Positions 12,851 through 40,422 of a stretch of DNA of 60,000 nucleotides are shown in pieces (positions within the stretch are counted from its first letter, which is position 1; each line of letters starts with the position of its first letter). A program made the translations under genes and the position numbers. The notes under the pieces were generated by a model. It was not told where the DNA came from and ran no database searches. It saw only the letters and a program-made list of their open reading frames with translations. The DNA comes from Amphiscolops sp. MND2022. Its lineage: Eukaryota. The stretch spans positions 27,840,001 through 27,900,000 of the forward strand of contig OZ076409.1 of assembly GCA_964187785.1 (NCBI GenBank). Reading direction: 5' to 3'.

Positions 12851-13037
12851 TGAAGTAATTCTAAGATAGGCTTGAGAAAAGAGATTAAGATCAACGTTTA
12901 CTCTAGCTGAAAGTTTACTGTAATGATATCAGCTTTAGGTTAAAGGTTAAGTTGTTGTTAGTAAACAATAATAGGTTCGAACTAAAAATAGCAACGGTAA
13001 TTAATATAGAGAGATTGTTTGTAAACAGTCTACTTCA
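12851..13037 (-). repeat. 3' LTR of element 1
   Basis: Direct repeat of 18627-18813; TGAAGTA...TACTTCA termini. Confidence 0.95.
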
Positions 13038-15036
13038 TTCCCCCTTCTTTGATTGGAGGAGAATCCTCCAATGGGTGTGCTTGTCCGTTGCTGTCCATTC
13101 TATTGTTATGTCCGGTTCTCCGTCCATGGTCTGGTAGTATTTTCTCCGGTGTTCCGTGAGAGGCATGTTGTGCTTCCGGGCGGTTTACTGGTCGACCTCT
13201 TCGCTTTGCTCCGGCATTTCCTCTGAGTATTCCTGTAGTGGTGACAGGTTGAGTCGTCTTGTTGTGTTTCCTGTAATCAGATTGGTTGACTGGGTTGTTT
13301 AATCTAACAATTGGATTTGTATTTGTTAACCTCTTTGACCGGCGTAAGTTAGTATTTTTTGGTTGCTCTATTTCTTCCTCTAATTCGGTACTAGAACTTA
13401 AGTTGCTTGCTAGTTCTAATTCTGATAGATCTAGTTTGTTTTCTATTTTGTTGTTATAAATTGTCACCTTACCGGAGTTATCTCTGATTTGAATTTCTTG
13501 CCCTGATTGTGTCGAGTCTCTTATTGTTTGGTCAATATCGGACTCCGACATTTGGTCTGTATTGATGGTAAGTGTCCCGGTTCCTGCATTGTTTTGTTGG
13601 CCCGGTGTGCTGTCTGGTGTTAGCGGTTTGTTGGTCCGTGGCCTTCCTCTGCCAATTGTGCTTGCCCGTTTGGTGGTGGGCGGTTCTGGGCTGGTATCCA
13701 GATCTTCTTCTAATGGGGATTTTTCGGGGGATTGTTTGGTTTTGTCCTGTTTTCTGGAAAATCTCCCGTCTGGTCCTCTTGGGCCCGTCCCTCTGTTTGT
13801 TGGTTCCTGTTCAAATGTATTAATTGGTTTGCTAATTAATTTACGGTGGATAATTTTATTATCTGAGGTAGTCACGGTATGTTCCGTTCCCGTGACCGCC
13901 GTTTGTAGATGCTCTGAATATGGACTTTCGAATTTTCCCTTTTGATTTTTCCGTTCGAAGAACTGAAACGGGTATTTACTTACCGTTTTTGCTCCTTTTC
14001 TCTTTTGTTTCATTGGTAGATGGTCGGAGCTACCGCCTTCTCCACTGAATGTATATACCTGTAAGGTATCTGGTCTCGCTGAAATGGAATTATTGGTTAT
14101 CAATTTAGTTTTATCTAGTTTCAGCATATTTCCCCATTCCGTATTTGGTTCTCTGCCAAAGTGTAGTTCGAATGCGGATTTTCTTAGCCTAGTGTGTGGT
14201 GTGGTCCGCATCACGTTTAGTGCTAAGTCCAATGCTTTTCCGAATGGTTCTCCGGCTTTTATATTAGTTAAGAGGTTTTCTTTCAAAGTGCGTACTCCTC
14301 TTTCTACTAGGCCGGTTGGGGTGTGAATATACGGTGTCCCGTATATTAGTTTTATGAATTTGTTTCTACAGAATTCTCTAAAGTGTCGTCCGGTAAAGGC
14401 GGTTGCCTTGTCCGTTCTTATCGTTTTTGGTACACCGTTTAGGTTACAGTATTGTTCCAAAAATTTTGTCGCCGTTTCACCGTCTGTGGTTTTGCACAGA
14501 CTGGCGGCTGGCCATTTACTAAACCTGTCCATGGAGAGTAAAATATAAAATCTACGGTTTTGGTCCGTGATTGGTCCGATGAAATCCAATTGGATTTCGT
14601 CGTTCGGTGCGTTTAAGGGAGGTAAGCTATTTTGTTCTGTTCGTGGTATATTAGGTTTAATGTTCTTACCGGAAAGTTTGCACGGTATACAGCTGTCACA
14701 TTTTCGTTGTATGGCTTCCATCAGTTTGGGCCACCAGAAGTGCTTTGCGGAGAGTGTCATTTTGTTGATTGCCGGGTGTCCTTTATGCAGCAAACTTATT
14801 ACGGTTGTTCTCAGGTTGATTGGCACAATGATCTTGTCTTCGAAAAATACCAGCCCATAACGTGTTGATAGCTTTTTTTTGTATGGGGTATACTCATCCG
14901 GAATGTTGTCATACTGTTGACGTTCCAGACAAACGAGTGTCTTCAGCAATTTTGGGTCATTTGTTGTTTCCGTCATAAGTAACTGAAGGTCAGTGGCAAA
15001 TTCTTTTTCCGTTTCGCGGACGGTTTGTTCCAGGTC
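13030..15036 (-). CDS. Integrase portion of element 1 polyprotein (after the in-frame TAG)
   Basis: HHCC (HKGH..CDSCIPC) and DDE (QLDFIGP, RTDKATAF, GLVERG), then a long low-complexity tail; in frame with the upstream ORF. Confidence 0.9.
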   Translation of the reverse strand, partial: DLEQTVRETEKEFATDLQLLMTETTNDPKLLKTLVCLERQQYDNIPDEYTPYKKKLSTRYGLVFFEDKIIVPINLRTTVISLLHKGHPAINKMTLSAKHFWWPKLMEAIQRKCDSCIPCKLSGKNIKPNIPRTEQNSLPPLNAPNDEIQLDFIGPITDQNRRFYILLSMDRFSKWPAASLCKTTDGETATKFLEQYCNLNGVPKTIRTDKATAFTGRHFREFCRNKFIKLIYGTPYIHTPTGLVERGVRTLKENLLTNIKAGEPFGKALDLALNVMRTTPHTRLRKSAFELHFGREPNTEWGNMLKLDKTKLITNNSISARPDTLQVYTFSGEGGSSDHLPMKQKRKGAKTVSKYPFQFFERKNQKGKFESPYSEHLQTAVTGTEHTVTTSDNKIIHRKLISKPINTFEQEPTNRGTGPRGPDGRFSRKQDKTKQSPEKSPLEEDLDTSPEPPTTKRASTIGRGRPRTNKPLTPDSTPGQQNNAGTGTLTINTDQMSESDIDQTIRDSTQSGQEIQIRDNSGKVTIYNNKIENKLDLSELELASNLSSSTELEEEIEQPKNTNLRRSKRLTNTNPIVRLNNPVNQSDYRKHNKTTQPVTTTGILRGNAGAKRRGRPVNRPEAQHASHGTPEKILPDHGRRTGHNNRMDSNGQAHPLEDSPPIKEGGMK

Positions 15037-18000
15037 CTAGCTATTTTGTTCGAGGGCTTGAACTCTTGGGGCGTGTCCCATTTTTATGTACTGCACGCTT
15101 TTTACCCCGATGTAATTTGCCCAGTTAATGGTGGGTACTTCCAGTACCGACGGTGCCAGTTCTGAGTCGCTGGAAATTTCTCCCTCTTCCATAATAATGT
15201 CCTGTTGGTTAACCGGTTCTGCTCTTGATGTTCCCGGTTGATCGTTATTAGTCCGCTGTATGAACCCTCCTCGGAAGTTTTGCGGAGCAGGTGCGGTCGA
15301 TTGCCAGTCTGCGGAGTATTCGTCAGATTGTTGTGGCCGGTTTCGAATTTCCCTGGCCGGGCTTTCTAGTTTCCGGATTATTTCGGAAAGTCTTTCTTCT
15401 ATTTCTCGTCTTTCTCCGCGGAGAAATTTCGGTTCATGGTATTTTTTCCATTTCCCGTTTGAGAGTCGGTATATTCCTGGCTTTACTATATTTCGCCACC
15501 GCTCTATCAGGTCCGTTGTTTCTTGTGAGTTGTCAATTCGCTCCAGGTTGTCCACTGTTCTTGCATCCATTGCTTTAAGATCGATCTGGTTTTGATGAGT
15601 TTTGCTACTTGTTTTGATGCGGTCAATGTTGTTAATGGCGTTTTGTTCACGTGTGCGTTCCGTTGACGGCTGTTTGTTTGCTTTCGTTCCTTTTGACATT
15701 TCGCTGCGCGCTTGTGATTGGACAAGGTGGTTGCTAAGGCAACCAACTTTTGAAACAAATTCGTAGTGCGGTACTATGCTGTTAATTACGTACTCTTCTT
15801 CGTATGCTTCGTCTTGTTGCGGTGGTGCGATTGGATTTCTACTCAAGTAATCCGTCAAAGCTAAATGCTTTCCCGCGATGTGGTTCACGTTAATTGAGAA
15901 GTGTGCTAATCGGTCGAGCCATCTAGTTAAACGGGCGCTGTATGTTTTATTAGAGCGGTTGCGTTTAATTAATGGTTCTAAAGCCTGATGATCGGTCAAT
16001 AGTTTTATCGGTTTACCGTATATATATAAACGGAAATGTTCTAGGCCCCATACAACCGCCAATAATTCTAATTCATTAATGGCGTATTTTTTTTCGGTAT
16101 CCGATAGAAATCTGCTTGCAAATGCTATCGGTTTCAATTCGCCATTATGTTGTTCTTGCCAGAGAGTTGCGCCCAGGCCTTTCGTGCTGGCGTCTGTCGT
16201 TATTGTATTCGGTAGATTGGAGCTGTAGTGTGCTAGACACGGTATCTCCGTGATCTTGTTTTTTAATTGTGTAAATGCTTCGGAGTGTTCTGGTGTCCAG
16301 CTCCATTCATTATTTTTTTTCAATAGTTGTCTCAGCAAGTCCGTTTGGGCTGACAAGTTTTCAATGTATTTTGATAAATATTGGATTGCCCCCAAGAAGG
16401 ATTTTAGTTCCTTTTCGTTTTTTGGTTCTTTTAGTTCTTGTATGGCTTTGAGTTTGTCTTGCAACGGTCTAATACCGTTTTGATCAATTTTGTGTCCCAC
16501 CCATTCTATTTCCGATTTGAAAAATTCGGTTTTGTTTTCGCTTAGTCTGTAACCTGCGTTTTCTAGTTTTGTTAATACGTCTATTAACTCGCGCTTGTGT
16601 TGTTCTTTTGTTCCTTTGGTAACTACTAATATGTCATCTAACCACGCCGGATGTTTGTTTTCCAGTGTTTGGTCGATCTTTTCTTGAAATATGGTCGGAA
16701 TGTCCGCCAAGCCGTAGAAGCCTTTAAGGAATCTATAGTAGCCGGTAAAGTTCCCACCGGTTACCGCAAATATGCATAGGTCCATTGCGTTTTTTGATAA
16801 CGGTAGTTGACCGTATGCATAATCCAAGTCGAATTTCGATATCCATATCTCGTCTGCTTCTCCGTCGGCGATTTTTCTGGATATTCTGGAAATTAATTCC
16901 TCCATATTCGGCATTTGCGCTTTTCTTTTCACGGTAATTTCGTTGAGTTTCCGTGAATCTAAGGCAATTTTTACCGATTTGTCTTTTTTGACTGTGATAA
17001 CGGCTGGGCTGACAAAGCAGTTTTCGTCGATATCGGTAGCTTTTTCAATATGACCGTTCTTCATTAATTTCTCGATTTCTTTACCGACTGCCGGTTGTAA
17101 ATGAATCGGTATCGGTCGGCCTTTCTGTTGTATCAATTTTGCGTCTGGTTTTAGTTGAATGTCTACTTCTATTCCTTTCACGGTTTTGTTCTCGTGAAAT
17201 AGTTTTTTGAATTTGTTTTTCAAATCGATGATATCTGGATCTTTTTGAATGTTTTGGATTTTTAGGTTTGACTTTTCGACATTTACGTTTATTCCCAGAT
17301 GTTTCATCCAGTCTAGTCCCAGTAATGGATTTGTTCTTTTTGTGGTAATCAGTAACTCGAGTTTCTTCTTTTCTCCGTCTATTTCGATGTTTGCCATTGT
17401 TTTTCCTTCGAATTTAATTTTGTTGTTGTTTACGTCTCTGTATTCTTCGTTCAATGGATATATTGTTGTAATGCCGTTGAACTTTTGTTTTGGTATTATG
17501 GTGACCGGTGATCCGCTGTCTATTATGAATTTGATTGGACGGTTGTTGACCAATACCGTCGCCGTGAAGAATGGTTGTCCGTGTTTGGATATTTGTATTG
17601 TTGAATGGATTGTTTTGTTTATTGAGTGTATCTTGTTTGGTGTCCAGTTGTCTTCTTCTGCGCTGGTGGCTTCGGAGTCTTGTTGGATGTGTTTTATTCT
17701 ACGGTCCGAGTTTTGTTTTGATCGGCATAATCTTGCAAAATGGCCGATTTTTCCGCAGTTTAGACACTTTTTTGTTTTCGCCGGACAGTCATGTGATTTG
17801 CTCCAGTTTGGTGCCCCACATCTGATACAGTCTACTTTTCTGAATTTATTTTGTCTTTCTTTTTCCGGCTTTTGGTAGGTTCTTTTTCTATCCACGTGTT
17901 TAATTTTTGTTTCTTCTTCGGAATCTTTCGATTCGTTCATTTTTTCATACATGTATTCGTGTATTGTGTCAGTAATTGCTTCTACCGACATGTCCCCTTT

Positions 18001-18597
18001 CTTTATTTTCTTCTTCAGGTCCTTGGTGTCTGTCGTTTTTCCGATAACGGATAGGAATTTTGATGCCAGCAGTTCTGCCGCTGTTATTTCTTCAAATTCG
18101 CAATTCTTTTCGATTTCTAGAATGCGTTTCCACGTTTCCGCAGCTGATTCTCCTGGTTCTCGTTTTAGGTTGAAGAAGTCTGCTCTACTGTGGTGTTTGT
18201 TCCTCTCGGGGATGAAATGGAGTCTGAATAGTGTATAAAGACGGTACAGTGGTAGAGAGTTTGGCTCTCTCTCTCTTACCGTCTTTGTCATTTCCGTGAT
18301 TGCTGATTGGCCAATCGCCCATATGAATACGTCTTTAATTTCTTCCTCCAACTGCTCTCTAAATTGTGGCAGTATTTCTTTGGAGTTAGTCATTTTCGAC
18401 AAGTCGATTTCTCGGGTCATTTTAATGTATTGGACGAATTTTCTCCACCATAGCTTTGCACTGGTGTGATCATTCTTTTCGAGGATCGGAATGGGTAGCT
18501 TTTGTGTTGCTGTCCGTTCAACCGATCTCGTCGTTGTGTTGTTTGGAAGGGATTGGCTGTTACTCTGTCCAGTAATGTTGCCTTCTTCGTCTTCCAT
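15037..18597 (-). CDS. gag-pol polyprotein of element 1 (Gag with two Zn knuckles, protease, RT, RNase H)
   Basis: CIRCG..HDCPA..CLNCGKIGHFARLC, FIIDSGS, HPAWLDDI, TDASTKGLGA, TDHQAL. Ends in a TAG that is in frame with the integrase ORF. Confidence 0.93.
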   Translation of the reverse strand: MEDEEGNITGQSNSQSLPNNTTTRSVERTATQKLPIPILEKNDHTSAKLWWRKFVQYIKMTREIDLSKMTNSKEILPQFREQLEEEIKDVFIWAIGQSAITEMTKTVREREPNSLPLYRLYTLFRLHFIPERNKHHSRADFFNLKREPGESAAETWKRILEIEKNCEFEEITAAELLASKFLSVIGKTTDTKDLKKKIKKGDMSVEAITDTIHEYMYEKMNESKDSEEETKIKHVDRKRTYQKPEKERQNKFRKVDCIRCGAPNWSKSHDCPAKTKKCLNCGKIGHFARLCRSKQNSDRRIKHIQQDSEATSAEEDNWTPNKIHSINKTIHSTIQISKHGQPFFTATVLVNNRPIKFIIDSGSPVTIIPKQKFNGITTIYPLNEEYRDVNNNKIKFEGKTMANIEIDGEKKKLELLITTKRTNPLLGLDWMKHLGINVNVEKSNLKIQNIQKDPDIIDLKNKFKKLFHENKTVKGIEVDIQLKPDAKLIQQKGRPIPIHLQPAVGKEIEKLMKNGHIEKATDIDENCFVSPAVITVKKDKSVKIALDSRKLNEITVKRKAQMPNMEELISRISRKIADGEADEIWISKFDLDYAYGQLPLSKNAMDLCIFAVTGGNFTGYYRFLKGFYGLADIPTIFQEKIDQTLENKHPAWLDDILVVTKGTKEQHKRELIDVLTKLENAGYRLSENKTEFFKSEIEWVGHKIDQNGIRPLQDKLKAIQELKEPKNEKELKSFLGAIQYLSKYIENLSAQTDLLRQLLKKNNEWSWTPEHSEAFTQLKNKITEIPCLAHYSSNLPNTITTDASTKGLGATLWQEQHNGELKPIAFASRFLSDTEKKYAINELELLAVVWGLEHFRLYIYGKPIKLLTDHQALEPLIKRNRSNKTYSARLTRWLDRLAHFSINVNHIAGKHLALTDYLSRNPIAPPQQDEAYEEEYVINSIVPHYEFVSKVGCLSNHLVQSQARSEMSKGTKANKQPSTERTREQNAINNIDRIKTSSKTHQNQIDLKAMDARTVDNLERIDNSQETTDLIERWRNIVKPGIYRLSNGKWKKYHEPKFLRGERREIEERLSEIIRKLESPAREIRNRPQQSDEYSADWQSTAPAPQNFRGGFIQRTNNDQPGTSRAEPVNQQDIIMEEGEISSDSELAPSVLEVPTINWANYIGVKSVQYIKMGHAPRVQALEQNS

Positions 18598-18626
18598 TGT
18601 AGTTCTTTAAATTGTTGACTGCGCCA

Positions 18627-19790: not shown

Positions 19791-19955
19791 AAATTTCGTC
19801 GTCGCAAATTTCGTCGTCGCAAATTTCGTCGTCGCAAATTTCGTCGTCGCAAATTTCGTCGTCGCAAATTTCGTCGTCGCAAATTTCGTCGTCGCAAATT
19901 TCGTCGTCAGAAAATTGGTCGTCAGAAATTTCGTTGTCAGAAATGTCGTCGTCGG
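19791..19955. repeat. 15-bp tandem array (AAATTTCGTCGTCGC), 11 units
   Basis: Seven perfect units followed by four diverging ones; no unique spacers. Confidence 0.95.
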
Positions 19956-20417
19956 TAGTTACGTTCTATTAAACTTCGCATTTTATCTAATCTACTAGGA
20001 ATAGTCCACTATTATTGAGTCTTAATAGTTATCGAGTCTTGATAATTATCTTAATAATTGTGGGAGGCTCTATGGTTTAAGCAACGGCCAATTTTGTGGC
20101 CATAGAGTGTCCAAGGCCTGAATTCAGGTTAGCCATAGAGTGGTACTACAAAAAGTCATATATAGGAAACTTCCAGCATTACGGAAAGGTATTCATTCAA
20201 AAGCAATCCGGAAATGATTGCCGCATACACTTGCGCAGCCTCGTCGCATAGGCGGAACAGGTAAATAACGATGACGTAATTAGACACTCTCTGGCTAGTG
20301 ACGTCATCAACATTCCCAGCCATAACACTACCTGTGTGACGTAATCAGACAACTGTAATTTATACAAAGCCGCCGCATGACATAACGTTCATTTCATAAC
20401 TTCATTCAATACAAATC

Positions 20418-20508
20418 ATTGCGTTCGTTTTCAATTTTTATTCAGAATTTTTAAAATTCCTATAATCACTCTTTGTTCACCTTTTGGTTACATATAGACA
20501 CGTGATGG
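20418..20508 (+). repeat. Left inverted repeat flanking the tyrosine recombinase gene
   Basis: ATTGCGTTC.TT.TCAAT ... CACTCTTTGTT-cacctt-TTGGTTACATATAGACACGTGATGG; inverted partner at 22875-22949. Confidence 0.85.
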
Positions 20509-22751
20509 CTAGTATACTTAGATCTGGTCGAATCCTGAAAAATTCACCGGAAAAAGAATTAGAACAATCAGAATTGCGAGAATCTAGTCCAGAAAACTTA
20601 AATTTAGACCTCAGTTTCGGTTTATCAGCACCAGGGCCTCTTACACAGGCAATTATAGACGATTTAGCTGGGTCTGAGTCCACCATGCGAGTGCTCGACG
20701 ATATCATCGAAAATGATTTCCTCCTGTTTTCCCCTAAAAAAAACAGACGATGCCCCCCTTGAAGCCACCCAAAGTCGTGAGGAGATACCCCCCGAAAAAT
20801 CGGAGACCGAACAAGGGCCCTCAACGCTACCGGCGGAACAAAAAACAGTAAAACGCGGAATCAAGCCAAAACAATCTGATGAAATTCAGTGTCCAATCTG
20901 TCCAAAAAAAGTGAAATTTCTTCGTCAGCATTTAGTCAAGAGCCACAAATGGACCGGTATCCCCCTACGTTTCATTTTGAGTGTGTTTTCTACTAAAAAT
21001 GCCAAAAGTCCGGTGTATGAATGCGCAGAATGTGTATACCGTTTCACTCATCGTCAGCGACATTTGAGTCAATTCCCTCAACATTCAATCAAAAACATCA
21101 CCCGAGACAATTGCAATGTATTTCCAGCCGAAATCATCAAATACATGAAAGAAAAAGGTGTCCTATCCGAGAAGGGCGGCGAAATGCTGAACAAATATCG
21201 CGATTATTGTATCGAAAAAATGAAACGGCCACTTGCAAATTTCCAATTCGACGCAATTTCAAAGTTTTTTAGAGGCACACACAGCATGAAAAGACCTGAA
21301 CTAGTTGGGAAAAGTCTTGATGATTTGAAAAAAGATCGCCAATATACTTTCAGCTCAGTACGAAAAATTTGTTTTGACATCAAACAGTTCATAAAGTGGA
21401 TGAATGCCGGGCATCAAAAATCTTATCGTATAAACAAGGTCAGTTTTGACGACTCGATCAATTTGTGGCTCAGTGAGACTTCTAAGGATTGCCTTAAAGA
21501 ACAGTCAAAGCGAAAACAGGAACGATTTGCACAAATTCCTACCATGGAATCACTTTGTGAGATCCAAGACAAGGTGGAAACTTTCATTGAAAATAAATTA
21601 GAATTAGACTCTCGATGGCATACAATGACCGTATTCGAAAAATTGTCGCTGATGTTATTCCAAATTCACTCACGGGCCAATTGCCGTGTGGGTATTTTGT
21701 TGTCTTTTACGACTGAGCAACTTGACGCATATGAACCAGGGACCTTTATTTGCTCGAATGACCATAAAACCGGAAGTTTATTCACCAACTACGCCTATAT
21801 AACAGCTTTTGAAAAGAAAGTTTTGCAAGAAATTCACAGTGAATACGAAGAAAAAGACGGTATCAAACCGACAACAATTTTTCCCGGCCATGATGATAAT
21901 GAATTCACGTCGCAATCGGCCACAATCAGCCGTCTAATGAAAAATTTATTTGGCAAAAAAGACGAAAAATTCAACCCGAATTCATGCAGAAAAGTTTGGG
22001 AGACTTTTTATGAGAAAAACAAGCAAAAAATTCCGACAAATCTCCGCAAAATATTCTAGGCTAATTCGGCACACTCTGAGAAGACGCGTGAGAAACACTA
22101 TGTTGTTCCACCAACAGATAATGAGTTACAAAATTTATTCGATGCGACAAATGATATCCGTATTCAATTTCGAAAAAAACGCGCCGAAAAACAATCAGAA
22201 ATACAATTGACAGTTCCCAGTACTGCTTCTGAGGATGCCGCCGAAAATCTTGAAGATGAGGATGATCCTCAAACTGAATTAATTGCTTCTTCGTCAAAAA
22301 ACTTTGTCCAAAACAGATCAAGTGAAAACTGGTCAGAAAGATGCAAAACGGAAAAAAGTTTCAAAAAAGAATAAAAATCGGGACTCCGAAACAGATCAGG
22401 ATTCTGAAAGCAACAGTAATGATAACGACGAAGAATTTCAACCCCCCCCCCCCCCGAAATGCAAAAGTTGTCAAAATTGAAGATACAAACATTAAAACAA
22501 GATTGAAAAATGAGGAATTATATGATGAAATTGCCAAAAGACTTTTGAAATTCAGTAACAGAAAGTCTTTCCCGTTGGAATCACAGTATAAAAGAGCTTG
22601 TCGAATGGTGGCTTCAAAGAGAGCAAAGTTGTCGAAAGGCAACGTAAAAGACATCGTAAACGAATTGAAACTAAATGAGGAAGACACTGCTTTTGTTTTC
22701 AAAAAAGTTTATTGTAAGCTGGTTAACGTTTACGCTACTGTAAAATTTTAG
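20505..22751 (+). pseudogene. Tyrosine recombinase with N-terminal C2H2-type zinc fingers, interrupted by one stop and homopolymer frameshifts
   Basis: CPICPKKVKFLRQHLVKSH and CAEC..H fingers. Catalytic-type motifs in order: ANCRVGIL (R), DHKTG (K), PNSCRK (xxxR), then past TAG 22057-22059 AHSEKTREKHY (H...Y, Tyr at 22099-22101). Frameshifts in an A run near 20740, near 22300 and in the C run at 22442-22455. Confidence 0.8.
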
Positions 22752-22874
22752 TCTGTACATAGATAATGAGTGACTCTGTTACTGCTGGTAATTACTGGAT
22801 AGTTTTGGATTGCCTAAATCAGAGTTTTCAGTTACTTTGTTGAATTGAAATTTGAGCCGCCGAAATCTCTTAAA

Positions 22875-22949
22875 CCACCACGTGTCTATGTGTAACCAAT
22901 TTCATAACAAAGAGTGTCTCATAGTAACTAGATTGACAATGAACGCAAT
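22875..22949 (-). repeat. Right inverted repeat flanking the tyrosine recombinase gene
   Basis: Reverse complement reads ATTGCGTTCATTGTCAAT ... CACTCTTTGTT-atgaaa-TTGGTTACACATAGACACGTGGTGG. Confidence 0.85.
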
Positions 22950-23600
22950 TTTTTCTGCCATAAGATGTCTGTAAGAAAAATTGGTCACCTGGTGTGATCA
23001 AAAAATTCATTCATAAAGAGAACCTTTTTTAGCTCATTAGAAATTCAAAAAACTTGAAGCGAGAGCCTTTTCAAGGATTTTGTGAAACTCTGAAAAATGT
23101 GGCACACTTCCGAAAAAACTTTGGATACAAAAAGACAAATTGATAACTGATTTTCTCATTTATAACAGAATGTTTTTAGCCATGAGCGTGGCAAAACATC
23201 AACTGTTCAAATTAGTTACCTTCAGTTCTCTTTACATTATTTCATGATTCTGTCAAATAAAGGAAACTGTGAAGCCCGTTGACGTGTCACACCAAGATTA
23301 ATTTTTCAAGAAGGAACTCTAACGCAATGAATAGTGAAATTTAATTGCCCGTTCAAGTAAATTGAGACAGAAGGCTTTTGAATTAAGGAGCCAGACCATA
23401 GCGTAAGGATGAGCCAAAATTTATGCAACTCATCCAACTACAATGAAATTTAGGCAAAGGTTGAATGTCATCGGGAATCAACTTCCACAAATTGAAATGA
23501 CTCAATTTGTGAGCTCTTTGCAATCTGTGGTATTTATGAATCATTTGAGGGAGACGTCCAAAATATTTTAAATTAATATTTGGATGATGAAATACCAACT

Positions 23601-23793
23601 TGTAGAGAGTGCAGACAATTAACTTAATTAGTCTTTATGCTATTTACTACATTTGTATTGTTGATGTTCTTTTGTCTAAATACCTGCCACTTAAGTGCAG
23701 ATGATCTACAATCATATAGCTCGAATAGTAAGCAAGAAAACAATTGAGTTTTGTACTGAAATACTTCTTCAACCATAAAGCTAGAATACAACA
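23601..23793 (+). repeat. 5' LTR of element 2
   Basis: TGTAG...CAACA; repeated at 29464-29656. Confidence 0.95.
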
Positions 23794-23860
23794 AGGCGCA
23801 GTCAGAATAGCTTTAAAGCTAAACACGATTTACACCAAAAAGAAAAAGTAACCATTCAAC

Positions 23861-26800
23861 ATGGAAGAAAATACGGGAGACGGAGAAAACACACAGACGT
23901 CAGCGGGCACACAACGAGACGGACAAATGTTACCGAACGACACAATGAACAGGACGGTAGACCGGACCTGCACCCAGAAGCTCACCATTCCCACGCTAGA
24001 AAAGCCCACGCAAGCATGTGGTGGAGAAAATTCGTCCAATACATAAAAATGACGAAAGACATAGATTTGTCAACCATGACAAACAGTAAAGAAATCCTAA
24101 CACAATACCGTGAACAACTCGAAACCGATATAAAAGACATTTTTATCTGGGCAATCGGACAAAATGCTATCACGGAGATGACAGAGACGGTCAGGGAAAG
24201 AGAACCGAGCTCATTACCATTATATAAACTGTACACACTCTTCCGACTACACTTCACCCCAGAGAGAAACGTACACCATAGCAGAGCCAACTTCTTTGAT
24301 TTGAAACGGGAAGACGGCGAAACTGCAGCAGATGTATGGAAACGGATATTAGAAGTAGAAAAGAACTGCGAATTTGAAACAGTTACCGCAGCAGAACTTG
24401 TAGCATCAAAATTTTTGTCACTCATCGGTAAATCAACCGGTGATTACGACTTAAAAAAGAAAATCAGAAAGAGTGACATGTCGGTAGAAGCCATAACTGA
24501 TGCAATACATGAGTATATGTACGAAAAGTTAAACGACTCACCCGAAACAGAGGAAGAGAAGAAAATCCGATATGTAAATAAACGAAAAACAAAAACCACA
24601 AAAGAACAACCAGAAAAACCGGCAAAATTTAAAAAGATCGACTGCAACCGTTGCGGAGCACCGAACTGGTCACGCCAACATGAATGTCCCGCCAGAGGAA
24701 AGAAATGCGCAAAATGCGGCAAAATCGGCTATTTTGCTAAATGCTGCCGCGCAAACAAAAGAGTAAACCACTTAATGGAAGGCGAAACAAGCAGCGCGGG
24801 TGAAGATGACTGGACACCGAACACAATCCATTCAGTAAAACAAAAGATACACTCAACCCGGTCGATGAGCAGCAAGGGACCGGAATTCTTCACAGTCACC
24901 GCATTGGTCAATAACCGACCAATCAAATTTATAATAGACAGCGGCTCACCAGTAACGCTAACACCAAAATCACAATTCAACAAGTTAACACCACTACGTC
25001 CCCTGGAAACAGAATACCGGGACGTGAATGACAACCGGATACGATTTGAAGGGAAAACAACCGCGAAAGTAGAAATTAACGCAACCCGAAAAGAACTGGA
25101 GCTCTTAGTAACAACCAAGAAAACAAACCCCTTGCTAGGTTTGGACTGGATGAAAAAATTGGGAATAACACTGGAGACCGGTACGACCGTCCCACAAATA
25201 CACCAAATAAAAGAAGACCCAAACGTAACAAAATTAAAAACGAAATTCAAAAAACTGTTCAACGAAAACCATACAGTAAACAGGCTAGAAGTAAAAATAC
25301 AACTGAAAGAAGACGCAAAACTGATACAACGGAAAGGAAGACCCATACCGATACATTTACAACAATCGGTGGAAAAAGAAATTGAAAAGTTAATAAAACA
25401 AGGACACATCGAAAAGGCCAACAACATCGACGAAAATTGCTTCGTAAGCCCAGCAGTAATCACGGTAAAGAAAGATAAATCCGTAAAAATAGCGTTAGAT
25501 TCGAGAAAGCTAAACGAAATAACCGTGAAACGAAAAGCTCAAATGCCGAACATGGAGGAGCTGATTTCGAGAATATCGAGAAAAATAGCAGATGGCCCAG
25601 CAGACGAAATCTGGATCTCCAATTTCGATTTAGATTACGCCTATGGTCAGCTCATACTCTCAAAATCAGCCAGAAACGTGTGCATATTCGCTGTAATCGG
25701 AGGAAACTTCACCGGTTACTACCGTTTCCTAAAAGGGTTCTACGGGTTAGCGGATATACCGACGATCTTTCAAGAAAAGATCGACCAGACACTGGAAAAC
25801 AAACACCCAGCATGGTTAGACGATATTATCGTGGTAACGAAGGGATCTAAAGAAGTACACATGAAAGAACTAATCGACGTCCTAACCAAGCACGAAAACG
25901 CTGGATACAGACTGAGCAAAACAAAATCCGAATTTTTCAAAACAGAAATTGAATGGATCGGTCACCGGATAGATCAAGCCGGAATCCGACCGCTACAAGA
26001 CAAGTTACTGGCTATAAAAGAACTGAAACAACCGAACAACGAAAAGGAACTAAAATCTTTTCTGGGAGCCATCCAGTATTTGTCAAAGTACATTGACAAT
26101 CTTGCCGCCCAAACTGACAGTTTGAGACAGCTGTTGAAAAAAATAACAAATGGCTCTGAACGGAAGAACACACGCTGGCTTTCGAAAATTTAAAACAAAA
26201 GATCACGGAAATACCGTGTCTAGCACATTACAATTCCGACTATCCAAACGTAATAACAACCGACGCAAGCACAAAAGGCTTAGGGGCAACCTTATGGTAA
26301 GAACAACCGAACGGAACACTAAAACCCATCGGTTTTGCAAGTCGCTTCCTATCAGACACAGAAAAAAATACGCCATTAACGAGCTCGAATTACTGGCAGT
26401 AGTTTGGGGCCTAGAACATTTCCGTCTATATATTTACGGTAAACCTATTAAACTCTTGACGGATCACCAGGCATTAGAACCATTAATTAAACGAAATCGT
26501 TCCAATAAAACATATAGCGCACGTTTAACACGGTGGTTGGACCGGTTAGCCCATTTTACGATCAACGTAAACCATATAGCCGGCAAACATTTAGCTCTCA
26601 CGCATTATCTAAGCAGAAATCCGGTATTACCACCACAAGTGGACGACAGGTACGACGAAGCATACGTAATCAATAATATCATTCCACACTACAGCTTCAT
26701 CTCCGAATACGGTTGCCTTAGCAACCACACGAGCCAATCAGAAAACGGTACCGAGAAAAGCGAACGCAAATCAAACAACGAGCCATTGACAAACGACACG

Positions 26801-29451
26801 CGTAAACAAACTGCCATTGATTGCCTTTACAGCGATGTACACACACGCTCAAATTCAAACAAACCGAATAATTCAAAGCATACCACATTACCAAGGGATG
26901 CTAGAACAATCGAAAACATCGAAACGAGATTTAATTCCGCCGAAATAACCGAGCTAACGACTCGGTGGAAAGAAATTGTAAAACCCGGAAATTATCGCAT
27001 GACCGGGGGGAGATGGAAACGCTACCATGAACCCAAATTCCTTCGCAATGAAAGGAAAATCATATTAGAACGATTACAACAACTTACCAGTAATCAACAA
27101 CCAAAAGACTTTCGACAAATTATCGGACCGCAACACAAAGGGGGCTATAAACCACTAACCGGTCACTCCGAGCAATGGACAGTGGATCTATTCTGGGAAA
27201 TGGACCGACCAACCCCAGTGGAACAACACCAACCAGACAAACCTGGCCCATCCTCCGCACCGATCCCCATGGAAGAAGGTGAGATCGACTCAGAAACAGA
27301 CCAAGACCCTTCGGTCCTAGAAGTGCCAGCGATAAACTGGGCACGATATGTCGGGGTAAAAAGTGTCCAGTATGTAAAGATGGGACACGCACCAAGAATT
27401 GCAGCCGAAGAGCAAAATGACTGGAACCTAGAACAGGCAGTGCGGGAGACAGAAAAGAACTTATCCACGGATTTGCAGCTAATAATGACTGAGACCACAA
27501 ATGACCCCAGCCTGTTAAAAACCCTGGTATGTCTCGAAAGACAACAACAAGAAATGATACCCGACGAGTACCAAATGGTCCGAAGAAAGCTATCCAGCCG
27601 GTTCGGTCTTGTCTTCATGGAAGACAGAATCATAGTGCCAAAGAACCTCCGAAACCACAGTCATCAGTCTTTTACACAAAGGACACCCAGCCATCAATAA
27701 GATGACCCTGGCAGCTCGACACTTCTGGTGTCCAAAGATGACGGAAGCCATACAGAAGAAAAGTGAAACTTGCATACCCTGCAAAATGTCCGGTAAGAGT
27801 ATAAAACCTAACATACCCAGCACGGAAAAAAAAACCTACCCCCGGTGCATAGCCCGAACGAAGAAATCCAATTGGATTTCATCGGACCAATCACGGATAA
27901 CAACCGTCGAGTCCATATACTACTGTCCATTGACCGGTACAGCAAATGGCCGGCAGCCAGTTTTTGTAAATATACCGACGGGGAAACGGCGGTAAAATTT
28001 TTTGAACAATACATTCAGCTGAACGGTATACCAAAGACAATCAGAAAAGATAAAGCAACTGCGTTCACGGGCCGCACTTTTCGCAATTTCTGCAAAAAAC
28101 ATTACATCAAACTGATTTACGGAACACCGTATATTCACACCCCCACAGGTTTAGTAGAACGAGGGGTCAGAACTCTGAAAGACAATCTTCTAACGAACAT
28201 TAAGGCCGGCGAGCGGTTCGGAAAAGCCTTAGACTTGTCATTAGACGTGATGAGAAAAACACCTCACACGAAACTAAAGAAATCCGCATTCGAACTACAT
28301 TACGGTCGAAAACCAAACACGGAAATATCCAATCTGTTAAACTTAGATAACTTGGAAAATCTAACAAAGAATTCCATTTCAGCGAAACCAGATACCTTAC
28401 AGGTATATTCATTCAGCGGAGTTGGCGGTGCCTCCGACCAGCTACCGATGAAGACAAGAAAAAACGATAAAGGAGTTAGTAATCAACCCTTTCTTTTTTT
28501 AGAAAAAAACATCAGAAATCAAAATTCGAAAGCGCATATACAGATAAACCGAATATAGCTATTTCGGAAACGAACCATACCGTAACAACGCCAAATGGAA
28601 GGATAATACACAAGAAATCCATTAGTAAACCCATCTGTGATTTTAACCAGGACTGCAACAACAACAGAGGAACCGGGCCGAGGGGACCAGACGGCCGGTT
28701 TACAAGATCACCATCAAAACCGAAGAGGGCATACGAGATCGAATCAGACACCGAGACACCGCCACCAGAGACAAGCAACCCAATCACCACGGACCAATCA
28801 GACAACGCCACGGTGAAAAAGGGCACGTATGGCAGAGGCAGACCAGTGATAGCAGTACGAGACCGGAGGAGCTCAAGCCCCCACCAACCCCCACCAGGAG
28901 GGATGAGCAACACTGGTCCACTTACCATCACCGCCGCCAACATGACAGACACGGAGATCAACCGTACTATCGAAGACGCTAGACAAGCGAACGATGAACT
29001 TTTTATCAGAGATGATAACGGTAAGGTGTTTAAAAATCTGACTTCTTTCCCTAAAACGGGGGAAGAGAACAACTTTGAAAATTCTGAATTAGACCTGATC
29101 AGTAATCTGAGCTCTAGCACCGAATTAGAAGCAGACATTAAACACGAAGAAGAAAAAACAATACGCAGATCAAAAAGACTAACAAAAACCAACCCAATTG
29201 TTAGATATAATAATCCAGTATGTCATGATTACAGGAAACATCGTAGAAAGGCTGAACTCGGAAGCAACACTGAGTCAAATGGAAACGGAAACAAACGACC
29301 CCAATTAGTCCATACAACAGACAACAAACTGACGTCACGGATAAACGCTCACCGTGACAACCATACAAGCAAGGATCGGGTATCCGTCCACAAACAACTG
29401 GACCATTGGAGGGACTACCGCCATACAGCAGAACCGAACATCAGTCAATAG
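23861..29451 (+). pseudogene. gag-pol of element 2 with multiple frameshifts and stops
   Basis: Fragments (e.g. 24016-26193, 26150-27700, 27845-28558, 28813-29451) are collinear with the element 1 polyprotein. Confidence 0.92.
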
Positions 29452-29463
29452 TGAGAGGGGAAA

Positions 29464-29656
29464 TGTAGAGAGTGCAGACAACTACCTTAATTAGTCTTTA
29501 TGCTATTTACTACATTTGTATTGTTGATGTTCTTTTGTCTAAATACCTGCCACTTAAGTGCAGATGATCTACAATCATATAGCTCGAATAGTAAGCAAGA
29601 AAACAATTGAGTTTTGTACTGAAATACTTCTTCAACCATAAAGCTAGAACACAACA
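29464..29656 (+). repeat. 3' LTR of element 2
   Basis: Direct repeat of 23601-23793, preceded by the PPT. Confidence 0.95.
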
Positions 29657-34977: not shown

Positions 34978-35168
34978 TGTGACATGACGTCATATTATGT
35001 ACTTATTTACATACATGCTAAAAATAGTAGTACTGACAATTTAGTACCAGTCAATAGTACTACCATGTAACATACATATGCTGACCTATTCACTTAACCT
35101 TTATACTTTGATACAGAATAGAAGCTTCAGCATTACATTCTTTTCATACTTATTTGTGAGATACAACA
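34978..35168 (+). repeat. 5' LTR of element 3
   Basis: TGTGACA...CAACA; repeated at 40705-40895. Confidence 0.95.
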
Positions 35169-35184
35169 TGGCGCAGTAAGCAAG

Positions 35185-38100
35185 ATGGAGAGTCAAAAAT
35201 CATCAAAAAGCACAAGCTCATCAAGTGGGGAAGTACCCGAAAGAGCAAATGCAAAAACAGAAAAAACTCATCAAAAAATCACGCTACCAACGTTCGAGAA
35301 ACGGGGAATACAAGAGGCAAAACTATGGTGGAGAAGGTTCACCCAGTATATAAAGATGACTCAAAACATCGATCTAAACGAAATGACAACAGATCGCGAA
35401 ATATTGCCGAACTACAGAGACGATCTGGAACACCGGATCAAAGATTTATTTATATGGGCACTCGGCGAGTCAGCGATAACGGAAATGACAAGAACCGTTA
35501 GAGATAATGATCCAAATAAAATGGACATTAACCAACTATATTCACTGTTCCGGTTACACTTCATACCGGAACGAAACAAATTTCACAGCAGAGCAGATTT
35601 CCTTGGGATAACTAGAGAAAAACATGAAACAGCAGAAGATGTGTGGACCAGAATATTACAAGTGGAAAAGAATTGCGAGTTCGAGAATGTGACACCAGCC
35701 GAACTGAAAGCTTCAAAATTTCCCTCTGTAATCGGACGGTCAACCGGTGACTACGAATTAAAAAAGAAAATCCGAAAAAGTGACATGACAATAGAAACAA
35801 TAACCGCATTATTACACGAGCACATGTACGACCGATTGAACGAATCGAACAATTCAAATGATGGAAAGGAGATTAAACATGTGCAGGAACGGCCACACAA
35901 AAGAAAGTGGACAGACAAAACCGATCAAGACAAATTGAAAAGACGACCGGAAAATCAAAAATATAAACAAAGAGATAACCGATGCGGACAATGTGGCGCA
36001 CCAAACTGGACAAGACAACACATATGCCCGGCGAAAATGGCAGAATGCAGAAATTGCAAAAGAAGAGGACACTATGAAAAAATGTGTAGATCCTCAAAAA
36101 GAGTTCAATACATCGAAAAAACAACTTCATCAGCAGAAGAAGACAACTGGGATTACAATAGAATCCAAAGAATAAACGATAAAGAACAGAAGAAAGACTT
36201 CTACAACGCAAAACTATTGGTCAACAACGTACCAATAAAATTCATCATAGACAGCGGCTCACCAGTAACACTAATTCCAGAGTGCTTATTTAACGATATA
36301 ACCACAATTAAACCACTCAAAACCACTTACAAAGATGTAAACAATCAAAGGATTGAATTTACTGAACAAACGAACGCACTGGTGAAAACAAACAAAGAGA
36401 CAATTGAATTACCACTACTGATTACAAAAGCGAAAACATCACCATTGATGGGATTGGACTGGATGCAACGGTTAAAAATCAACCTGAGCTCAAATAACGA
36501 AGCAATCCAAATCCACAATATAAAACTAGACAACATGGACAAGAAAATAATAATACTCCAGAACGACTTCAAAGATTTGTTCTACAACAACTAAGAGATA
36601 AAGAACCTCTCAGTCAAAGTACAATTGAAAGAAGGGGCACAAATAATATAACAAAAAGGAAGACCGATCCCAATACACCTACAAGACCAAGTGGCATTAG
36701 AACTAAAACGACTTATCAAACACGGGTACTTGGAAAGAGCAACAGAAATCACCGAAGATTGTTTTGTGAGTCGCGCAGTGATTACAGTGAAAAAAGACAA
36801 ATCAAAATAAATTGCCCTAGACTCCAGAAAACTCAACGAAGTTACAATAAAGAGAAAAGCTCAGATGCCAAATATGGAAGAGCTAATTTCACGGATATCA
36901 AGAAAGATATCCGAAGGAAAAGAAGGCGAAATTTTGGCAACAAAATTAGATTTTGACCACGCCTACGGTCAGATTAAACTCGACGAAAATACAAAAAACC
37001 TTTGTATATTCACTGTAACAGGAGGGGACTTTACCGGATACTATCGTTTCTTGAAAGGATTTTACGGACTGGCCGATATACCAACAATTTTCCAAGAACG
37101 AATAGACACGACACTTGAACACAAACACCCGGCATGGTTAGACGACATCATTATAGTCACCAAAGGAAGCATTGATGAACACGAAACGGAAGTTCGGGAG
37201 ACAATGAAGAAACTGGAAGAAGCTGGCTATAGACTAAACCCAAAAAAGTGCGAATTTTTCAAAAAAGAAATCGAATGGGTCGGACACAAAATTGACCAGC
37301 AAGGAATACGACCATTACAAGATAAACTAGAAGCCATCACAAAAATCAACATACCAAAAAACGAAAAAGAATTAAAATCATTCCTGGGAGCAAAACAATA
37401 CTTATCAAAGTACATCGAAAATCTGTCAGCAAACACAGACGTACTGAGAAAGCTATTGAAAAAACAAAACGAATGGATTTGGACAGACGAACACACAGAA
37501 GCATTCAACAAGCTAAAAGAAGGCATAACCAGAATACCATGCCTGGCACACTATAACGCACAAAACGAAAACATAATCACCACAGACGCCAGTACAAAAG
37601 GACTGGGGGCAACGTTATGGCAAAAACAAAAAGATGGAAATTTAAAACCAGTCGGATTCGCAAGCAGATATTTATCGGACACAGAAAAGAAATATGCGAT
37701 AAATGAACTAGAACTACTGGCAGTAGTGTGGGGATTGGAACACTTTCGATTATACATATACGGAAAGCCAATAGAACTATTAACAGATCACAAAGCGTTA
37801 GAACCATTAATCAAAAGAAATCGATTGAACAAAACATATAGTGCAAGATTAACAAGATGGTTAGACCGCTTGGCTCATTTTGATATAAACATCAAACATA
37901 TCGCCGGAAAACTTTTAGCACTAACCGATTATCTGAGCAGAAACCCAATCTCAAAACCAGTACCGATTGAAAATTATGATGAAGAGTACGTAATTAATTG
38001 CATAATGCCTTTACTCGAGTTCATCAACAATTATGGCAGCGTCGCCAGTCAAAAGAAATTAGAAGCGCGAACGGATCAAAACGAACAGCGTGAACAAACC

Positions 38101-40422
38101 GTCAACCAATCAGAGCGAAGCAGACCAAACAAACCGAAGTCAAAAGAGAACAAAGCAAACAAACGCAGTTCATCGCTACCACATTCAAATACAGTCGATA
38201 CAAATAAACTCAATACCATTCAAACCGTTCAAGAAATAACAATGGACATTCGTCGAATCGAACAAATTGAAAAAGAAGATCATTCAGAAGAAACACTAAA
38301 CTTGACGAAACGCTGGAGAGAACTAGTCAAACCCGGAGAGTACAGAACATCAAACGGAGCTTGGAAGAAATATAACCCGCCAACACATCACAGAGCAGAA
38401 ATAAAACGGATAGAAATGAGTCTGAACCAACGAAGAAACAGAATGCTCTGGAATCGCATGGAAGAACAAGATGAAGAAGCAAGAGAAGAAAACGAACGAA
38501 GAAATGAGCTGTACCGGGTTATCGAAAAAATCCGAAACTTGCCACAAAAACAAGAAAAACAACTAGAAACAAGCAGTGAAACACAAGAACAAGAAGATTC
38601 ACCAGAAGTAGAAACAGAATCAACAAGTTCAATTGAATCCCTGGGCGTTCCCGCAATAAATTTCAAAAAATACATCGGAGCAACCGGTGTCCGATATATT
38701 CAAATGGGACAAGCCAGTCATATACAAGAAGAAAACAAATGGGATTTAGAAGAAACAATTAGACAAGCGGAGCAGAAATTTGCAACTGACCTGAGAACAA
38801 TTGCTAAAGAAACAACTGACGACGAGAAACTACTAAAAACATTAGTATGCCTCAAAAGAAGAACATTAGAACAAATCCCGGAAGAATACAAAGCCTACCA
38901 AAAACAACTATCAACGAGAGTCGGTGTGGTATTTTACGATGACCGAATTATTATTCCAAAATCACTCAGGACAACCATTATAATGTTACTACACAAAGGA
39001 CACGCGGCCATAAATAAAATGACAGCAGCAGCCAAACCGTTCTGGTGGCCACGACTGATTCGGGACATACAGCAAAAATGCGACGAATGCATCCCGTGCA
39101 AAATGGCAGGTAAGAATATTAAACCACAATTACCAATGACAGAAATTAACTACTTACCACCGGCGGAAAAAACCAACCAAGAAATCCAATTGGATTTCAT
39201 TGGACCAATAAGATTTAAACACCGGAGATTTTACATATTGCTCTCAATAGACCGGAATAGCAGATGGCCGGCGGCATGTATTTGTGAAACACCAACCGGA
39301 AAAACAGCAAAGAACTTTTTGAAACAATACATAACACTGAATGGTTTACCACAAACAATAAGAACAGATAAAAGCACGGCCTTCACCGGAAAAGAATTTA
39401 GAGATTTTTGTAAATCACTAAATATAAAATTAATTTACGGAACACCGTATATTCATACCCCTACCGGATTGGTAGAAAGAGGAATCAAAACACTGAAAGA
39501 GTACTTACGAACTAACCTAGAAGAAGGTTACGTAATAAACGAGGCATTAAGCCGTTCATTAAATGTAATGAGAATGACGATCCATTCAAGCATAAAAGAA
39601 ACACCATTCGAACGTCATTACGGCAGAAAGCCACGAACGGAAATTCATAATTACTTGAATGTGTCACCTAATAAACAATACAATGTTTCAGCAAGACCAG
39701 AGACGCTGCAAGTGTATTCATTTACCAACGGAAACGGAACATACGATCAACTGGTAATGAACACCCCGAGAAAACTAAAGGAAGACGTGAGTAACAAATT
39801 TCCTTACCTCTTTCTCGAAAGAAAACAAAATAGAAACAAATTTGAAAGTATGTACGAAAATAAACCACAAATGGCCGTGGCCGGTACAAAACACACCATA
39901 ATAACGGATACGAACAAAATAATACATAGAAAAAGAGCAAGCAAACCTTTAAACCAAATATTTCAGAATCCTCTATCCCGACGAGGAGAAAACCCGAGGG
40001 GAAAAGATGGAAGGTTCACAACGATCGAACAACAGGAGGACAACACCAATACAGCGGAACACTCAGAAAGATGCAGTACACCGGTGCTAGAAGAAAACGT
40101 GTTAAACAACACACTGACCCCAATGACTCCAGAACTAGACTGGGAGAACACAAACATCAGCCCAGTGTACGGCAGAGGACGAAAGAAGCTAATCAGAGAC
40201 AGAAAGAACACACCAACACCTGGAGCAACAATCAATGGAAGACCAACAACAGAAGAAGATCCAAACGTAATCACAGTGGTAGATGAAAACGGTAATACCG
40301 ATTTAATAAAGTCTGAAAACATAGAACCAAACGAAAACCAAAATGAACAAAATATACGAAAGTCAACCAGACTAAGATCCACTAATCCAAAAAAAAAAAA
40401 TGGAAATCCAATCACATTCTGA
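35185..40422 (+). pseudogene. Single-frame gag-pol of element 3 with two premature TAA stops
   Basis: ORFs 35185-36594 and 36865-40422 share a frame; stops at 36592-36594 and 36649-36651; Gag knuckles, DSGS protease, WLDD RT, RNase H and HHCC/DDE integrase. Confidence 0.92.

Follow-up and report, generated by a model that had tools for sequence, protein, structure and literature searches.

The locus and its interrupted gene

We analyzed a 60,000-nucleotide stretch of the Amphiscolops sp. MND2022 genome (assembly GCA_964187785.1, contig OZ076409.1, positions 27,840,001 to 27,900,000 of the forward strand; hereafter the window, with coordinates counted from its first letter) that contains a gene for a zinc-finger tyrosine recombinase (YR) accompanied by inverted repeats (IRs). 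A preliminary description had proposed that the gene belongs to an undescribed YR DNA transposon or to a self-inverting cassette. Our data make it very likely that this locus holds a defective copy of a YR DNA transposon that is autonomous, has been active recently, and integrates specifically into (TAA)n triplet repeats, always in a single orientation. This copy occupies about 20055–22945, with its gene on the + strand, and is dead and 3'-truncated: homology with other genomic copies begins near 20042–20058 and stops at 22945, and because all other copies run on for another 441 bp past this point, the last 441 bp of the element, right terminus included, are absent (truncation point 22945..22946). 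The genome search returned no other match for 22946–23600.

The YR gene (20505..22751, + strand) is broken here by three frameshifting insertions and one TAG. Relative to the intact sister copy L002, the window frame carries 34 substitutions and insertions of +1, +1, and +4 near 20736, 22296, and 22445, and the premature TAG at 22057–22059 lies upstream of the codons for the catalytic His and Tyr. Judged by its sequence, the window copy cannot make an active enzyme. The gene of about 745 codons reconstructed in the preliminary description is nonetheless real, as intact relatives encode 746–748 amino acids (aa). At its left terminus (20055..20075, + strand), the element begins with 8 bp, TAATTGTG, followed by a terminal copy of a 13-bp motif (20063–20075); this segment would be the left recombination half-site, its first TAA being ambiguous with the target. 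The host target (20011..20057) is part of a dispersed repeat whose 17-bp tandem unit ends in TAATAA, and two other copies of the element (L003 and L009) lie at the same site of this repeat.

The recombinase protein

Residues R394, HKT420–422, R495, H523, and Y532 were invariant in 32 of 32 aligned proteins, upholding the catalytic motifs named in the preliminary description (codons on the + strand: R394 at 21685, K421 at 21766, R495 at 21988, H523 at 22072, and Y532 at 22099). The usual YR motif is H-x-x-R, and its first His was not kept in the aligned proteins. A YR fold was likewise confirmed by structural matches of an AlphaFold model built from a 12-sequence alignment (mean predicted local distance difference test score 65, mostly >70 in folded parts), of which the top ones were all YRs. 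Model residues 218–525 matched XerH (Z 10.2, root-mean-square deviation 5.0, 270 residues aligned), XerA (Z 9.3), Brujita Int (9.1), Tn1549 Int (8.8), and Cre (8.7), and the core-binding (SAM-like) and catalytic domains are encoded at 21157..22101 (+ strand). Foldseek also ranked YRs first in both PDB and viral-model libraries, with none at E<=0.001.

Two further regions flank this core. Two zinc-finger-like motifs (20890..21084, + strand; C-x2-C...H-x4-H and C-x2-C...H...H) gave only weak matches in a PDB sequence search, to the fingers of Ros and ZBTB7A (E 0.014–0.07). A conserved four-helix C-terminal domain (22482..22751, + strand) reached a best Z of 7.1 in a structural search, among common helical bundles, which assigned it no fold, and found no usable match in an Atlas search. 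Rough ratios of nonsynonymous to synonymous change were 0.13 (family A vs B) and 0.11 (E vs E2) over residues 125–560, and 0.10 (A vs B) and 0.53 (E vs E2, where changes were few) over the C-terminal domain.

Relatives of the protein are numerous and poorly annotated. A profile search retrieved 170 representatives at E<=0.001, and the homologues it found bore no informative names. An N-terminal SET domain was present in three of the Pfam-scanned representatives; the distant homologues P0042, P0094, P0147, P0186, P0188, and P0190 have such a domain fused to a zinc-finger-YR protein. The nearest Atlas clusters were eukaryotic and without a Pfam family, DUF3435 clusters appearing only at ranks 13–14 in a feature search, and no relatives were confirmed in viral contigs or metagenome contigs. 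In a quick, midpoint-rooted tree of the aligned proteins, which had long branches and did not include known YRs, the families that target TAA nested among those that target TTA.

Dispersed copies and triplet targets

The host genome (1.07 Gb) contains many copies of this element. A DNA search of it, in which the best 40 of 72 candidates were scored, gave at least 48 matches; at least 24 other loci covered query positions 1–2566 (to window position 22945), 20 of these at 91% identity. Among 30 loci examined, both ends were found by exact anchors in 25, and 15 of these 25 two-ended copies were identical over 3329 bp, each with an open 748-aa frame. The transposon is thus a 3.33-kb unit with a single open reading frame (ORF), fixed ends, and many dispersed copies. 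No reverse transcriptase (RT) lies inside it, so the earlier proposal of a YR DNA transposon without RT was correct. Copies L026 and L030 are internally deleted and keep both ends.

Insertion sites were highly uniform. Left flanks ended in TAA in 28 of 28 loci and in TAATAA in 27 of 28, and right flanks started with TAATAA in 24 of 25 loci; most flanks lay in long (TAA)n arrays. TAC units break the TAA arrays beside some elements (the right flank of L004 and the left flank of L016), and it is possible that these interruptions are footprints of earlier events or the result of slippage. Elements of the same or different families also stand head to tail in one array (L006, L014, L017, L023, L163, L170, L220, L222, and L224).

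A protein search of the same genome (best 150 of 868 candidates scored; 100 matching regions retrieved) gave at least 151 matches, which fall into families of 3.31–3.37 kb with one ORF each. Read in the direction of the ORF, families A, B, and C adjoin (TAA)n, families D, E, and F adjoin (TTA)n, and families G and I adjoin (TCA)n. Among 80 further loci from related families, we could place the right end of 76, of which 73 adjoin their family's triplet repeat (at least 11 of 12 flanking bases in that repeat; 70 scored by script and three read individually); the right ends that do not are those of L159, L164, and L166. Family F (L072–L074 and L187–L195) has an ORF of only 577–639 aa and a 980-bp 3' region in an element that still measures 3.37 kb, and its C-terminal domain may have been lost or may be spliced. 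Further unclassified families (L157, L158, L160, L163, L165, L219, and L225) are microsatellite-flanked where their ends were seen; their DNA is about 67% identical to that of C or D, or they match I at one end only.

The uniform size of these units also bears on whether the gene might be an integrase from, or belonging to, an endogenous large DNA virus resembling a nimavirus. As described, the telomere-repeat-specific YRs of nimaviruses share the order of C2H2 fingers, SAM-like domain, and YR domain and a simple-repeat target (PMC10871703). However, every family found here is a 3.31–3.37-kb unit with one ORF and both ends in a microsatellite, leaving no room for viral genes, and no nimavirus protein was named among the 50 BFVD matches listed. 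We regard a viral integrase as an extremely improbable description of these copies.

The inverted repeat

The IR that drew attention to this locus (20467–20508 and 22875–22916) has the geometry first reported for it: 42 nt, 81% complementary, with an identical 11-bp arm, a wholly mismatched middle 6 bp, and a 25-bp arm with two mismatches. As also reported, the start ATG lies in the left repeat, with GTG at the matching place in the right. In the intact sister copy L002, the IR scored 44, compared with a maximum of 27 over 60 shuffles.

The repeats had been interpreted as crossover sites of the recombinase or as terminal inverted repeats (TIRs), in which case the ORF segment would invert or transpose alone. 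Their non-random score fits that interpretation, as do the 6-bp mismatch, equal in length to a YR overlap, and the right 6-bp segment, which distinguishes subfamily A from B at two of six positions in an otherwise unchanged arm. Their position does not fit, however: rather than bracketing the element, the IR is internal, set in by about 410 bp from the left end and by about 470 bp from the right, and full-length copies are all colinear and reach beyond both arms. The true ends are defined elsewhere, and the interpretation of the repeats as target sites or TIRs is not supported. Sites of the loxP/FRT type consist of two inverted 11–13-bp arms flanking a 6–8-bp spacer, according to a study of Cryptons (PMC3212892). 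The repeats here are not shaped like such YR or att-type sites, because neither arm of a repeat is an inverted copy of the other; they are direct motif copies, with no dyad symmetry about the 6 bp.

Genomic copies of the IR argue further against crossover there. With the six middle bases unspecified, a pattern search of the genome matched 57 sites, 29 of left type and 28 of right type; all were parental, and none of the 57 in the assembly was hybrid or inverted. Each spacer was always joined to its own inner arm, and the assembly therefore contains no inversion product, contrary to the idea of a self-inverting cassette. The preliminary description had named in advance a central segment no more variable than its arms as evidence against its proposal, and the left segment was indeed CACCTT in 27 of 27 scorable loci (30 examined); the right segment had two subfamily-fixed states, ATGAAA in six and ATAAAT in 21. 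In that place, no comparable IR occurs in families C, D, or E, whose best internal scores (24–26) fall inside the shuffle range. For the germline assembly, the crossover interpretation is largely refuted, and we consider it very improbable overall.

A weak outer IR of 18 bp (20418–20435 vs 22932–22949) was also present in the window, where four non-element bases past the truncation lengthen the inverted match. It was rejected as an element boundary because it depends on these last four bases, which follow the point of truncation and which none of the other copies displayed contains. The truncation falls exactly at this match, perhaps by chance or through a template switch.

A 13-bp motif array

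In place of crossover sites, our analysis points to an array of 13-bp motif copies (best copy AGACTCTCTATGG), two of which lie in each IR arm. Using a matrix trained with one family left out at a time, we counted 15 non-coding copies in family A, 16 in B, 12 in C, 11 in D, and 10 in E, compared with shuffle means of 1–2 and maxima of 5–8. The copies occur at conserved offsets in A–E, and all four IR copies were recovered. In the window, the left IR arm comprises direct copies at 20464–20476 (weak) and 20496–20508 (20464..20508, + strand), the latter overlapping the start ATG at 20505, and the right arm comprises copies at 22875–22887 and 22907–22919 (22875..22919, − strand). The left pair stands at ATG-41 and ATG-9; in intact copies, the right pair stands 512 and 480 bp inward of the true right end.

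Other copies stand outside the IR. One lies 8 bp inside each terminus, the two being mutually inverted, most clearly in B, D, and E. Two subterminal copies (20100..20145, − strand; 20100–20112 and 20133–20145) keep the same offsets in families A–E, and an internal copy (20282..20294, + strand), about 222 bp 5' of the ATG, also keeps its position in A–E. Integrases of the lambda Int type divide their binding sites into arm and core sites, and the subterminal pair may represent arm-type binding sites. The copy that overlaps the start codon, of the form AGAC-N5-ATGG, is shared by A, B, C, D, and E (in D as read from the printed sequence), an arrangement that suggests autorepression. A coding-region copy at element position about 1549 of L007, found at the same place in A, C, and D, could serve as a binding site or could follow from conservation of the protein.

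These patterns suggest that the motif is bound by the element's own protein and that the IR probably consists of protein-binding sites inside the element rather than its ends. The IR might instead have no protein-level role beyond its motif copies, arising as a lineage-specific inverted duplication or conversion tract, or serving in RNA or single-strand pairing. It is family-specific in both sequence and position, and between A and B it is conserved at 40 of 42 positions per arm, scarcely more than the 92–94% of the non-coding background, as such an origin would predict. Nevertheless, a motif-like copy occurs in the repeat of every family with an internal IR, and the ATG-overlapping copy is retained in A, B, C, D, and E, making this alternative possible but rather unlikely.

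Termini and proposed mechanism

Comparison with element-free copies of the same host repeats showed what an insertion adds. The window copy, L003, and L009 occupy one site of a host repeat, with two TAA units on the left and three on the right; among 24 element-free paralogues of that site, none had three TAA units, and the usual form was two triplets. Three YR element copies have inserted, each independently, at this one site within the repeat of 17-bp units. L025 lies in a second repeat; without the element, its site has one TAA (17 of 22 copies of the site read identically), and the filled site has four. By this comparison, insertion in family A/B (L003, L009, and L025) adds the core element plus 9 bp. 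In L166 (family E), which lies in the same repeat as L025, the gain is the element bounded by its 8 + 13 bp plus the six bases TAATTA, a block that matches neither the L166 target nor (TTA)2. The gains of 9 bp in A/B and 6 bp in E both fit a single 8+6+8 junction.

Our best reading is that the element is a YR transposon of CryptonV-like type that targets microsatellites and moves by way of a circle. In this scheme, the zinc fingers, core-binding and catalytic domains, and C-terminal helices would act as one protein that binds the 13-bp motif. The two element ends would synapse, and the element would be excised or copied out as a circle whose junction has about 6 bp of TAA repeat at its center, followed on each side by 8 bp and then the motif; this junction would then recombine with a target containing TAA or TTA. 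The remaining motif copies would be arm-type or regulatory sites, with the ATG-overlapping copy mediating autorepression, and the IR would be an opposed pair of internal double sites, possibly looped by protein and left uncut. We infer the circular intermediate from YR chemistry, from the model proposed for Cryptons (PMC3212892, PMC9977147), and from Starships (10.64898/2026.09.21.753150).

The same transposon might alternatively recombine as a classical Crypton, through identical 6-bp TAATAA repeats with one extra TAA at the right end and no tolerance of mismatched overlaps. Such a process would account for the TAATAA on both sides of nearly all copies, and its mechanism has been described for Cryptons and seen for CryptonF in Chlamydomonas (PMC3212892, PMC9977147). 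The junctions of L002, L025, L166, and L209 fit it poorly: in addition to L025 and L166 as described above, L002 has TGATAA on the left and just two TAA on the right, and L209, although its site is in near-unique DNA, carries CATCAT at the right end. Searches for empty sites of L002, of L209, and of the L009 right flank gave no usable empty junction. The four junctions suggest that the overlap need not match, as in Tn916 coupling sequences (PMC12229494), though they are four in number, are paralogous rather than allelic comparisons, and could reflect later point mutations. We therefore treat the classical mechanism as a serious possibility, if somewhat short of an even one. The analogy to Tn916 coupling sequences, drawn earlier for the internal IR, may apply instead at the true termini.

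Several observations weigh against the favored scheme of a motif-binding recombinase and a circular intermediate. Neither a circle, an excision footprint, nor a true empty allele was seen, the empty sites being paralogues, and binding of the motif by the protein is itself something we infer. No Pfam YR family was matched at the cut-off, with weak matches to Phage_int_SAM_1. The repeat phase at the ends of the TCA families implies an overlap of 5 or 8 bp, not 6, and the motif signal is weaker in families I and G (five and four non-coding matches, shuffle maximum 2, with seeds from their own ends). Families F, G, and I also have internal IRs of their own in other places (18–25 bp, scores 33–36 vs shuffle maxima of 26–29), and pairing of 5' and 3' internal sites may thus serve beyond simple binding. 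Finally, 12 identical or near-identical bases between the IR motif copies are unexplained by the 13-bp motif; the site recognized may be longer, the bases may stem from a local inverted duplication, or 5' and 3' sites may be joined in a loop.

Neighboring sequence

To the left of the element, the tandem unit of 17 bp extends over 19945–20057 and belongs to an abundant dispersed repeat (677 candidates in the search), and a 15-bp tandem array of 10.9 copies at 19791–19954 likewise belongs to an abundant dispersed repeat. Long ORFs occupy 13030–18606 (− strand), 23601–29650 (+ strand), and 35122–40422 (+ strand). Translations of the first two contain protease, RT, and RNase H-like motifs, and we take these two to be Gypsy-like by motif. 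The segment 23601–23800 is a multicopy repeat resembling a long terminal repeat, with a second copy near 29464.

Implications

The surprise put forward for this locus, an invertible cassette, is absent, and what is new is a group of families belonging to a kind that is known, though sparsely documented, and showing unusually clear end anatomy and target switching. In the searchable literature, as far as its accessible text goes, microsatellite-specific YR transposons are represented by little beyond the name CryptonV and one sentence. The present data add 15 intact copies that do not differ from one another and no fewer than eight families, which between them use three classes of target, with defined termini and a conserved array of sites. 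Under the bolder view of a separate YR lineage given below, very recent activity combined with switching among TAA, TTA polarity, and TCA would provide a natural panel for the determinants of target and orientation, which would inform a compact, single-protein eukaryotic integrase. The circle model and repeat targeting become directly testable with one 748-aa protein and a mini-element, and a compact integrase for repeat "safe" sites is a possible yield.

Comparison with known systems

The description of the element as undescribed is doubtful because microsatellite-specific YR DNA transposons are already on record as CryptonV, some families of which insert specifically in microsatellites according to a passage in PMC8869645. 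That source attributes CryptonV to Kapitonov and Jurka 2012 (Repbase Reports), and the name is also listed in PMC5753468. The element resembles CryptonV, compared by description, in being the same type of YR-encoding DNA transposon lineage with the microsatellite-specific insertion shown here. We consider it moderately probable that the element would group with CryptonV by sequence. In the literature searched, this architecture was not described; the Repbase CryptonV report and the Kojima review (10.1266/ggs.18-00024) lay outside that coverage and may describe it.

The element has the features of Cryptons in the broad sense. A YR is its sole mobility enzyme, with no RT or RNase H; its termini carry short (4–6 bp) direct repeats or microhomology; and it has no long TIRs or long direct repeats, only an imperfect inverted similarity of 10–21 bp between its ends. 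With CryptonA, F, I, and S it shares a single YR gene, absence of RT, short end repeats, absence of long TIRs, and a circle model, as outlined in PMC3212892, PMC13465315, and PMC9977147; movement as circles was proposed for Cryptons in the first of these. The CryptonA and CryptonI elements of animals are described without a C-terminal domain or terminal repeats. The element here, in contrast, encodes zinc fingers at the N terminus and a helical domain at the C terminus of its protein, and it carries 13-bp sites in an array. Assignment to CryptonA or CryptonF was rejected, as neither DUF3504 (CryptonA) nor GCR1_C (CryptonF) gave a Pfam match at E<=0.1 in 14 of 14 proteins.

Starships resemble the element as eukaryotic YR transposons with microhomology at their ends, and their circular intermediate has been demonstrated (10.64898/2026.09.21.753150). 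Membership among them was rejected: the element has no DUF3435 Pfam match, no cargo, and a single ORF in 3.3 kb. DIRS, Ngaro, and VIPER were also rejected, the RT-RNase H and the inverted or split direct terminal repeats being absent from the element.

Nimavirus telomere-repeat YRs are alike in domain order, use of a simple-repeat target, and concatemer-like target arrangements. They differ in residing in 280–400-kb viral genomes and targeting (TAACC)n, compared with the stand-alone 3.3-kb units and triplets found here, and in their authors' tree they are not close to DIRS, Enterprise, or Cryptons (PMC10871703). A bolder view would be that the elements form a eukaryotic YR lineage separate from described Cryptons, a zinc-finger counterpart of lambda and Tn916 with arm-site arrays, a carried 6-bp block, little need for homology, and autorepression. 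We offer this tentatively and consider it unlikely; perhaps such a lineage served as the source pool of the repeat-targeting integrases of nimaviruses.

The heterobivalent integrases of lambda and Tn916-Tn1549 (PMC12229494) share with the element a YR fold, an extra N-terminal module of DNA-binding type, internal sites that are repeated toward each end, termini that are short and inverted, targets rich in AT, and possibly non-identical overlaps. Unlike these systems, the element is eukaryotic, lacks excisionase and conjugation genes, has zinc fingers in place of the arm-binding domain, and uses one motif at both its terminal and its internal sites.

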